Shown here one piece after another: positions 32,745 through 36,250 of a stretch of DNA of 64,000 nucleotides. The translations under genes were made by a program, and so were the position numbers. Position 1 is the stretch's first letter, and each line of letters begins with the position of its first letter. Location of the stretch: positions 27,032,001 through 27,096,000 of the forward strand of contig CM068746.1 in the NCBI GenBank assembly GCA_035084275.1, written 5' to 3'. The stretch comes from Hydrolagus colliei (Eukaryota). A model generated the notes under the pieces. It was given only the letters and a program-made list of their open reading frames with translations. It was not told the origin of the DNA and searched no databases.

Positions 32745-32943
32745 GTAATTCTATTTGCAATCATTCATTCATACATAATATTTGCTGCTTTAAAATTGCT
32801 AGTTGTAACTCTCGCAAACAAATTTGAATCGTGTTTGCCATTGGATTACTTTTTAGATGGCGTAGACTTCCAGACAAACTATAAATGTGTCACAACACTG
32901 ACCTTCATATTTGTGAGTGGAGAAGAATGGCTTACAGTTATCA
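32745..32943 (+). repeat. 199-bp segment, copy 1 (duplicated at 35991-36189)
   Basis: Ungapped alignment with 13 mismatches (about 93%). Confidence 0.95.
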
Positions 32944-34024
32944 GTGCATCCTTAATTGTACTTTATCATTTGGGGAGTAACAGGTCGTCCTAATCTGTCA
33001 AAAGTGAAATAGTTTTAACTTAACCTCCTGAAACAATGCAGTGGTTGCAGCTTGTGCTTATTGTGAAGATCATTGAGCCATTGAATCACATCAGGGCACT
33101 GGTGTGCTTGAAAACCTAAAACAAGCCGGGTTTTTGGTGGTTCCTATTATGACGCATTGCCTCTTCGGTGTTTTGTTTTCACAAACAGAACTGCATGTGT
33201 GTGTGTGTGTGTAAAAAAATACAAGCCAGCAGACAAGAAGGCTTCTAGGATAGCTATCCAATCTTTGATCCGTTGTTATTAGCCGTCGGTATTCAGACAG
33301 AGTAATTGCCAAGCCTCTTGGTACAAGGTTCACAGTAAATCTACCTTAGTTTTCCCTTTTCTTCCTGCCTGCCTCCATTGAAGTTGACCTCTGTCAGTTA
33401 GAGAGCCTCATCAGTGACTCCAACCGCACCAAGAGCATCTTAATGATCTGAAATTCTTCTGAGAAGTTGGTGATGTTTTCTCATCAGGATCCAATTTGGA
33501 GCGCTTTGTTCCATTCTTGAACTTGTCTTTGGAACTGCAAAATAGCAAGTCAGTTTGTACTCCTTTACACCGTGAGTTAGGAAGCCAAAATATACTCCTG
33601 CAGGAAAGATGGGAAAGACAAAAAAGAAATAATTGCAACAAAAAAAGACGTGCTCTAACAATTTTTGGGGTTGTAAAATGGTATATTCAGTATATTCATA
33701 GACGTGGGGAATAAGGCTATTGTATAAATAAGATAAAACTGAAGGCAAATGTATTTCAGTTGTTAGATCTTAATTTCCTAAAATCTGACAGCAAATTTAG
33801 CATCAATGACCTGATTATTTCAATACAGTAATTCACATTTGTACAGAAATAAAGGAGAAGCACTGAGAGTGGAATAGTTAATGCTATGCTGTTCTTTTTA
33901 TGTGAGAATGTTTTCAGTACGAACGATTCGAAAATGCTTATTACTGTTAGCCCTTCATAGCCTGATCTTTAGAAGTAAAATTTACTGCAATTCAACCTCT
34001 ATTCCTTTCTATTCACCACACTTG

Positions 34025-34156
34025 NNNNNNNNNNNNNNNNNNNNNNNNNNNNNNNNNNNNNNNNNNNNNNNNNNNNNNNNNNNNNNNNNNNNNNNNNNNN
34101 NNNNNNNNNNNNNNNNNNNNNNNNNNNNNNNNNNNNNNNNNNNNNNNNNNNNNNNN
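34025..34156. other. Assembly gap (N run)
   Basis: Run of N. Confidence 1.
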
Positions 34157-34926
34157 CAGGAGAGCAATTACTTATCTGCTTTCATCTCTCTAGCTCTGAT
34201 ACATCAGGCAGAAAACCATGCAGATAAATGCTGGAATTAGCATTATGCAGGTCTTAAAATGAATGGGCTGGTGTCTTGTGTTGCCTTCTATAGCTTTTGT
34301 TTTGAAGAGCAAGTGAAATTAAGATGATTATCATCCATCAATCTGCTAGAATGACTGTGAAAGAACAAAAGAAGCTTACATTCCATGTTTATTTCGTTTT
34401 CACAGACATGCCGTTTTTTTCAATGTATATTGGAACTGATTCATATTTTGATGAAATAGTTATTATTTCGAATATTTAATTTCTTCCAATCCTCAGAAAT
34501 GCGCTTTCCATACAAACGAACTTGAAAAACACCAATTGCTTGGAAACTGATGCAAAGCCCGTAAAGTGAATTAGGAACTTGAATTAACAGTTATTAATGC
34601 AGTCAGTTGTGTCAATAAAATTTAATGACTACCGAGAATTAAAAATGTATTTGCAGATGGTATCTGATCACTGCATCTTGGTCACTGTTTATGTGCCTGG
34701 AGCAACTTCCTTTTTTAATCGTAAAATCGTATCTGTGCTTTAATTGTACATTTTAAAATTAACATTTTAATTTTGAACACTTTTTGAAGCAGGAATACTG
34801 TTGCAATTTCCCACTGACTGCATGTTGCCTTGCAGGATGAAGTTTTAAGACCGAGTTCTGGCTTAAAATGCTAAGATTGGAAATTTTGGTGGCTTTAATT
34901 CACCCAAGTTTCAGGACTCTGTGAAC

Positions 34927-35114
34927 NNNNNNNNNNNNNNNNNNNNNNNNNNNNNNNNNNNNNNNNNNNNNNNNNNNNNNNNNNNNNNNNNNNNNNNNNN
35001 NNNNNNNNNNNNNNNNNNNNNNNNNNNNNNNNNNNNNNNNNNNNNNNNNNNNNNNNNNNNNNNNNNNNNNNNNNNNNNNNNNNNNNNNNNNNNNNNNNNN
35101 NNNNNNNNNNNNNN
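34927..35114. other. Assembly gap (N run)
   Basis: Run of N. Confidence 1.
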
Positions 35115-35931
35115 CAGAAAGAAGAAAAACAAGGGCATGTCAAGGCCTAAAGTGAAGATGTGTGTAAAATAATATGAGCAGCTTTATTAGCCAGAGAATG
35201 TTTAGAAGTTCCATTTTGGCCTCTTTAACATGTGGCACCGCAAAATATGTTACATTAATAATATCAAAGCAAAGATTTTGTGAAGAGCTTGTATTTTTGT
35301 CCTTTTCCTAAGATGCTGTACAGATGCAATTTTGTTATTATTGTTGTAGCAAGACTCAGGTAGAAAACTGCTTTAAGAGGATGTGATATAACATGCATAA
35401 CTGGAAAGCGAAAAGCTTCAAAAAGTATGCATTTACAGGCTTTTCTGGAGCTGTTGCTTAGTCATTTACAGAATTAAGAAAAGGGCTTATTGTCTTAATT
35501 TAGCATATGAAATGCATTTTGGGTGATGATGATAATATCACCCGGTTTGAGCAATTCACCTCAATCCAGTTGTATTTTCTGGATGCTCAAGTGAGAAAAA
35601 TTTGCATTAAAAGCTCATGAGATTTCTCTTCTCTCTAACCACCCCTCCCCATGCATACAAATAAATATAACGAGTCAACGTGATTGTAATCCTATTGAGG
35701 GGTTCATATGACCTTATACACAGTGCTTTATAAGCATTATTAGAATCTCAAAATTGGATTACATCCTGAACTGCCTTCCCAATATTTTGTTATTTTTATT
35801 GAATTTATCCCATGGTCTCCAGTGACAAGGTGAAAATCAATCGTGTAACATTGTGTTTTTATCTGTCCTAAGATCAAGATGTACAAGGGAATCCCATCAT
35901 AGCACCATTCAGTGTAGGTAGCATTGCCTCG

Positions 35932-36250
35932 CTTTTTACATGGGTTGCAGTGAATTGCTCTAAACAGGTGGCCAGGACACCCGGTTTCCAGTAATTCTAT
36001 TTGCAATTATTCATTCATACATAATATTTGCTGCTTTAAAATTGCTAGTTGTGACTCTCGCAAACAAATTTGAATTGTGTTTGCTATCGGATTCTTTTTT
36101 AGATGGTGTAGACTTCAAGGCAAACTATAAATGTGTCACAACACTGACCTTCATGTTTGCGAGTGGAGAAGAATGGCTTGCAGTTATCAACTTTTCACAT
36201 GGATTGAGATGAATTGCTCAAACCAGGTGGCCAGGATACCCGGTTTCCAG
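35932..36250 (+). repeat. 199-bp copy 2 flanked by 60-bp direct repeats (35932-35991 and 36191-36250)
   Basis: ctttttacatgggttgcagtgaattgctctaaacaggtggccaggacacccggtttccag vs cttttcacatggattgagatgaattgctcaaaccaggtggccaggatacccggtttccag (8 mismatches). Confidence 0.93.

Follow-up and report, generated by a model that had tools for sequence, protein, structure and literature searches.

A 199-bp piece of FOXP2 intron 3 duplicated between two copies of a 60-bp host segment in a chimaera, most likely by one old germline template switch

Intron 3 of FOXP2 in the chimaera Hydrolagus colliei contains a 199-bp piece that has been duplicated 3.2 kb downstream, where its second copy lies between two copies of a 60-bp segment in an arrangement common to relatives. 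The duplication most likely arose by one old germline template switch, with the source copy probably a constrained regulatory element and the inserted copy probably decaying at or near the neutral rate, a reading to which we assign a probability of about 0.62. In the window, by which we mean the whole 64,000-nucleotide stretch of DNA analysed here, the 199-bp unit is called X, the 60-bp unit A and the DNA between X1 and A1 Y. The order on the forward strand is X1 (32745-32943), about 3.0 kb of other DNA, A1 (35932-35991), X2 (35991-36189) and A2 (36191-36250), giving the pattern X1-Y-A1-X2-A2. X1, which sits in unique flanks, is the source copy, and A2 runs on into unique DNA. We regard the structure as a real germline rearrangement, inherited and of a known class, by which a regulatory element that is now decaying was probably copied.

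Comparison of the window with itself bore out the pairing of the two 199-bp segments claimed in the preliminary description of this DNA, as X1 and X2 align without gaps at 13 mismatches in 199 positions (E 1e-81), a divergence of 6.5%. The direct repeats that it had placed on either side of X2 were likewise recovered with 8 mismatches in 60, or 13%. The inverted copy that it had reported at 35539-35568 (reverse strand) matches the reverse complement of 36200-36229, a segment of A2, at 28 of 30 positions and A1 at 24 of 30; the former value exceeds chance, the best match in 60 simulated sequences of like composition being 24/30. A 7-bp hairpin at 35521-35545 overlaps the left end of this inverted 30-mer and could mark a switch point or be there by chance. 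The junctions are tight, with X2 sharing one base (35991) with A1 and a single base (36190) separating X2 from A2. Other short local direct duplications occur in the window at 54436-54488 / 55300-55351 (87%) and 15606-15666 / 15787-15847 (80%), and an imperfect palindrome of 135 nt built from repeat fragments lies at 51292-51426.

The preliminary description lacked the genic context. The window encodes FOXP2 on the forward strand, with an exon-7 peptide 93-99% identical to Callorhinchus milii FOXP2, and protein comparison places coding exon 3 at 1651-1740 and coding exon 4 at 38454-38591, so that X1-Y-A1-X2-A2 falls inside an intron 3 of 36.7 kb. Further coding exons, including a long polyglutamine exon, lie on the same strand at 39535-39717, 42927-43080, 44282-44492, about 50190-50297, 61328-61420 and 63677-63765. 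None of 120 FOXP2 proteins matched the region from 31 to 38 kb in a tblastn search, and no credible match to mammalian or gar in-frame cassette peptides was found in the readable part of the intron. In intron 5, forward-strand stretches at 40060-40152 and 40805-40858 translate to matches (94% and 72%) with inserts of predicted sturgeon and gar FOXP2 proteins and may be either conserved intronic elements or cryptic exons. Published accounts describe many conserved elements in FOXP2 (PMC2781166) and enhancers in its introns (PMC7917222, PMC5826363).

The structure recurs beyond the assembled window. In a second species, organism B, one ungapped contig of 593 nt spans 35872-36454, and thus A1-X2-A2, with 20 differences, while the X1 alleles are found on a separate contig. 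In runs X6 and X10 alike, X2 is preceded by the end of A1 and followed by the start of A2, with the last 30 bases of A1 before the junction identical in both, although run X10 is of low depth and has just 20 letters to one side of its second junction. A further sample of the window's species, run X4, holds alleles of both X1 and X2 at contig depths that lie close together (55 and about 59), a depth that does not equate to copy number. Contigs of runs X13 and X18 leave 35380-36227 and 35115-36492 uncovered, respectively, holes that the contig filter makes uninformative as to whether organisms C and D carry the copy, and the inverted 30-mer, which lies outside contig cover in the other runs, is seen in the window only. 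Small word shares of 0.13-0.14 in the large-genome organisms D, E and F carry no weight. The view taken earlier that simple mis-assembly is improbable is upheld by the recurrence of the junctions in organism B and in runs X6 and X10, and the same junctions in a second species and a third sample rule out mis-assembly or a collapsed haplotype. The runs of N between the copies, which had been described as gaps, cannot be read as assembly gaps and say nothing on assembly. Because a second species and a third sample carry the same junctions, the structure is an inherited one that predates the split from organism B. By our own arithmetic it is estimated to be roughly three to four times older than that split, a figure that uses an inferred 4 differences in X2 and 16 among 384 flank bases; the X2 of the run contig has 14 counted differences from X1, 10 of them listed, and three of the unlisted four are assumed to be shared. 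We infer both the direction and the age of copying from data that include no outgroup without the copy.

Both units are confined to this locus. Across the 1.0-Gb genome X matches twice, searches with A2 plus flank and with the 600 bases up to the end of A1 gave local matches only, and the core of the inverted repeat has two matches at up to 3 mismatches, both at this locus. The genome DNA search skips very common words, and pattern searches agree with its result. The preliminary description had held that local-only 60-bp and 199-bp units would speak for a repair-type insertion, and separate searches with the two units favour that outcome. No paralogous copy of X was found at other FOXP loci at E up to 10. 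A 21-nt pattern from the 60-mer has two outside matches at 2 mismatches, which resemble decayed copies of a common SINE, and the 60-mer shares an 18-nt word with a SINE family that has at least 1515 genome matches to the family word and that, we assume, resembles the Deu-domain SINEs. A pairwise score of 43 between the 60-mer and this SINE, where shuffles reached 41 at most, is biased by the choice of the locus through the shared word, and the 60-mer was rejected as a SINE remnant, since a profile built from 30 family copies has no match in 35115-36500. SINE copies are abundant in the window (11238-11668, 27366-27752, 36519-36870 and many others), three of them starting with tRNA-like heads at 44780, 46295 and 47412. 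Broken reverse-transcriptase-like frames at 5444-7399 (reverse strand) mark a LINE remnant, presumably of CR1/L2 type, and inverted arms of 28 nt that begin TACAGT and lie 159 nt apart at 30410-30624 have what we take to be the look of a small Tc1/pogo-type MITE. No Rfam match was found in 32400-36500 at E up to 1, and elsewhere only three tRNA-like matches reached the gathering score.

In the template switch that we favour, synthesis would have stalled at the end of A, the stalled strand would have jumped back 3.2 kb and copied X, and copying would then have resumed at the start of A, which would thereby have been copied twice. The inverted 30-mer 0.4 kb upstream would probably represent a further short switch onto the opposite strand. 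Consistent with such a path, the template was copied with its source retained, and A1 and A2 flank X2 to within one base, as expected of a return to the host with a re-replicated segment. Junction homology amounts to 1 nt at A1|X2 and 0-1 nt at X2|A2, where one base agrees with neither template, and neither a poly(A) tract nor a short target duplication was found at the junctions. A hairpin at the A junction was considered as the stall site and set aside as unconvincing (z of -0.33 for A1 and -1.77 for A2). Of the two origins proposed earlier, templated insertion with an unusually long target duplication thus survives in part: the templated insertion stands, with both units local only, but for the 60-mer a host segment copied a second time is a better reading than a target-site duplication. 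Replication-switch models such as FoSTeS, MMBIR and serial slippage are summarised in PMC4056370, which notes that breakpoints do not distinguish between them.

The unequal divergences of X (6.5%) and A (13%) fit one old event if X1 is constrained. With X1 held fixed and X2 drifting by 6.5%, 7.8 differences in 60 would be expected between drifting copies of A, and 8 are seen; were both copies of X drifting at the rate of A, 26.5 differences would be expected as against the 13 seen (P=0.003). The difference between 6.5% and 13% is by itself not significant (P=0.11). Two CpGs of X1 read TpG in X2. The data do not reject the same age for A1, A2 and the inverted copy (P=0.14), which makes it plausible that the further short switch took place within the same event. 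When the 36209 allele of runs X6 and X10 is restored, agreement between the ancestral A2 and the inverted copy rises to 29 of 30 positions.

The main rival is a two-step origin, in which 32745-35991 was first duplicated in tandem and the second copy then lost about 3.0 kb by deletion, leaving X2 and A2. X-Y-A-X-A is the exact product of such a path, identical in sequence to the outcome of a single switch, and there could have been an advantage in losing the duplicate of the Y block, which evolves slowly. We nevertheless consider this origin doubtful, since it requires two events, runs X6 and X10 have the same two junctions as the window, self-comparison reveals no remnant of Y near A2, and the inverted 30-mer is left unexplained. 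Insertion of a pre-mRNA fragment by an RNA-templated or retrotransposon-mediated route would account for X2 being oriented as the gene and coming from the same transcript, in a window that contains LINE remnants. Retroposition usually leaves a target duplication of 7-20 bp, however, and the 60-bp flank here is far longer; the poly(A) tail and short target duplication that are hallmarks of retroposed (TPRT) insertion are absent, and the junctions of X2 have no endonuclease-type site, all of which renders this route highly improbable. The second origin proposed earlier, Pack-type capture by a non-autonomous DNA transposon, draws on an inverted pair of 30 nt that begins CACC and encloses X2. That pair occurs at a single locus, since a search of 1.0 Gb tolerating up to 3 mismatches gave two matches, both local, and revealed no dispersed terminal-repeat family, and no target duplication of 2-11 bp surrounds it with either right arm; X2 is moreover bounded by direct repeats rather than inverted ones. 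With dispersed terminal inverted repeats and a short target-site duplication both absent, we regard the probability of capture as close to negligible.

X is a candidate regulatory element with a cluster of predicted forkhead sites. The forkhead consensus is TRTTTRY, and X1 holds five matches to it on either strand within 163 bp (32752-32914; starts at 32752, 32779, 32814, 32832 and 32908), where 0.53 would be expected. No other 199-nt stretch in the 64 kb reaches this density, nor did any of 3000 shuffles, and when the letters of the motif were permuted in 105 ways, more than two sites turned up for the true order alone. The motif was picked after a hairpin-like pair had been noticed, so that the chance of such a cluster is about 0.03 once 100 candidate motifs are allowed for. 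TGTTTAC, the best FOXP2 site according to the data given in PMC3695516, is absent among the five.

Comparison with organism B points to slow change in and around X1, with 1 change among 117 covered bases of X1 and, in its uncopied downstream flank (32944-33180, forward strand), 3 substitutions and 2 indels in about 230 bases. Together the two differ at 4 of about 350 positions as against an inferred 16 of 384 around X2 (P=0.012), a flank rate that is inflated by the higher GC and CpG content of the flanks. Taken alone, X1 is not significantly slower than those flanks (1/117 against 16/384, P=0.14) or than X2 (P=0.65). A distant organism, G, has a colinear contig over 32961-33033, within the X1 flank, and no second aligned piece over X1 at 80% likeness, which counts weakly against deep conservation of X1. 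X1 is probably a constrained regulatory element, a candidate forkhead-site cluster and possibly also a stop-introducing cassette exon.

The fate of the inserted copy can be considered separately from its origin. By default we read X2 as probably decaying at or near the neutral rate. The alternative, compatible with either origin, is that selection has kept X2 as a second forkhead-responsive FOXP2 enhancer; the copied 199 bp take in the whole five-site cluster, the window's X2 retains all five sites, and only about 4 of 199 positions differ between species. Reporter assays, moreover, indicate that FOXP proteins regulate FOXP2 enhancers (PMC5826363), and the gene's introns hold such elements (PMC7917222, PMC5826363). 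Against it, all five sites would survive by chance with a probability of 0.20, the third site is altered in the X2 of run X10 (at a contig depth under 5, so possibly in error), and none of the five is the best FOXP2 site (PMC3695516). The inferred 4 changes in 199 are fewer than the 8.3 expected (P=0.08), which tells somewhat against strictly neutral decay, and the lower rate of X2 relative to its flanks does not reach significance (P=0.08-0.23). We consider retained enhancer function unlikely.

X1 also contains a 56-nt piece resembling a cassette exon (32857-32912, forward strand), with a predicted pyrimidine-TAG acceptor and GTGAGT donor; its inclusion is predicted to add Met-Ala-stop and thus a stop two codons after exon 3. 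This raises the possibility that X1 is a stop-introducing cassette exon, and that X2 has been silenced both by the change of its donor from GT to GC at 36160 and by a 30-bp RNA stem, formed by the inverted copy with A2, that would loop X2 out. The exonic stretch differs between X1 and X2 at four positions. Acceptor and donor shapes and an early stop are present in both copies, an 87-aa isoform of hominid FOXP2 stops one residue after exon 3, and the predicted fold encloses X2, with duplex energies for the inverted copy of -44.5 kcal/mol with A2 and -34.0 with A1. The donor is weak, however, and the same exon shape arises in 7.5% of random 199-mers from this intron. The hominid isoform ends ...Q-P where inclusion of the X1 piece would give ...Q-M-A, and none of 240 retrieved FOXP proteins has a 6-residue word in common with it. 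An inverted copy is bound to give a high fold score, and A2 carries an uncompensated pair-breaking change at 36209. Taken together, these points make the silenced-exon model quite improbable. Twelve of 120 retrieved FOXP2 proteins start in exon 4, and the intron has three other AG|Pro-stop starts, all with weak acceptors. No splice junction for the 56-nt piece was seen in two runs guessed to be RNA, of which X12 gave no contig here and X24 a single one, over the X1 flank, that is unspliced; none of the runs listed as matching the locus is labelled RNA.

A more ambitious combination would have one multi-switch event give the chimaera lineage a second functional forkhead-site enhancer in FOXP2, possibly an autoregulatory one, while the inverted repeat from the same event keeps the duplicated poison-exon-like piece looped out of the pre-mRNA. 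We consider this model very unlikely; were it true, the enhancer would have been doubled without doubling exon inclusion. The structure provides a base-resolved germline example, common to species, of a rearrangement class defined mainly in tumours, and it indicates how an event of this class can duplicate an entire candidate regulatory module within a developmental gene under heavy constraint. Comparing X1 with X2 is a natural way of asking which bases of a FOXP2 intronic element matter. If X2 is merely decaying, the locus is a molecular fossil of the ordinary kind and might serve as a phylogenetic marker for chimaeras. The locus seems, on a weak basis, to be without an earlier published description.

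Among known systems, the structure resembles Pack-MULE and Pack-CACTA elements in having a host fragment between short inverted sequences. It differs from them in lacking a family and a target duplication and in having direct repeats at the ends of the fragment. The exon-like piece recalls FOXP2 exon 3a, reportedly a stop-introducing cassette exon of 58 nt between exons 3 and 4, in that it lies in the same intron, is of similar size, shifts the frame and brings a stop within two codons; unlike the hominid 87-aa isoform, which opens with P-stop, it opens with M-A-stop. The literature searched yielded no usable description of exon 3a, and this comparison draws on protein records. With the homotypic site clusters in conserved non-coding FOXP2 elements (PMC2781166, PMC5826363, PMC7917222), X shares an intronic slow block, a gene rich in conserved elements and enhancers, and five forkhead-type sites. 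In contrast to those clusters, its predicted sites are not the best FOXP2 motif, and its copy is a local, tandem-range duplicate rather than a paralogue from whole-genome duplication.

The closest likeness is to the cycles of templated insertion and local two-jump events of Li et al. 2020 (PMC7025897), where cycles are defined as strings that return to and re-replicate a host segment. As in those events, the source is kept, the host segment is re-replicated, and two junctions join a nearby template. The events in PMC7025897 are somatic, while the one described here is germline, old and common to species, as well as very small (199 and 60 bp), with junction homology of 0-1 nt and a single event inferred. 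Read as a single event, the structure would be a cycle of templated insertion in its most reduced form.
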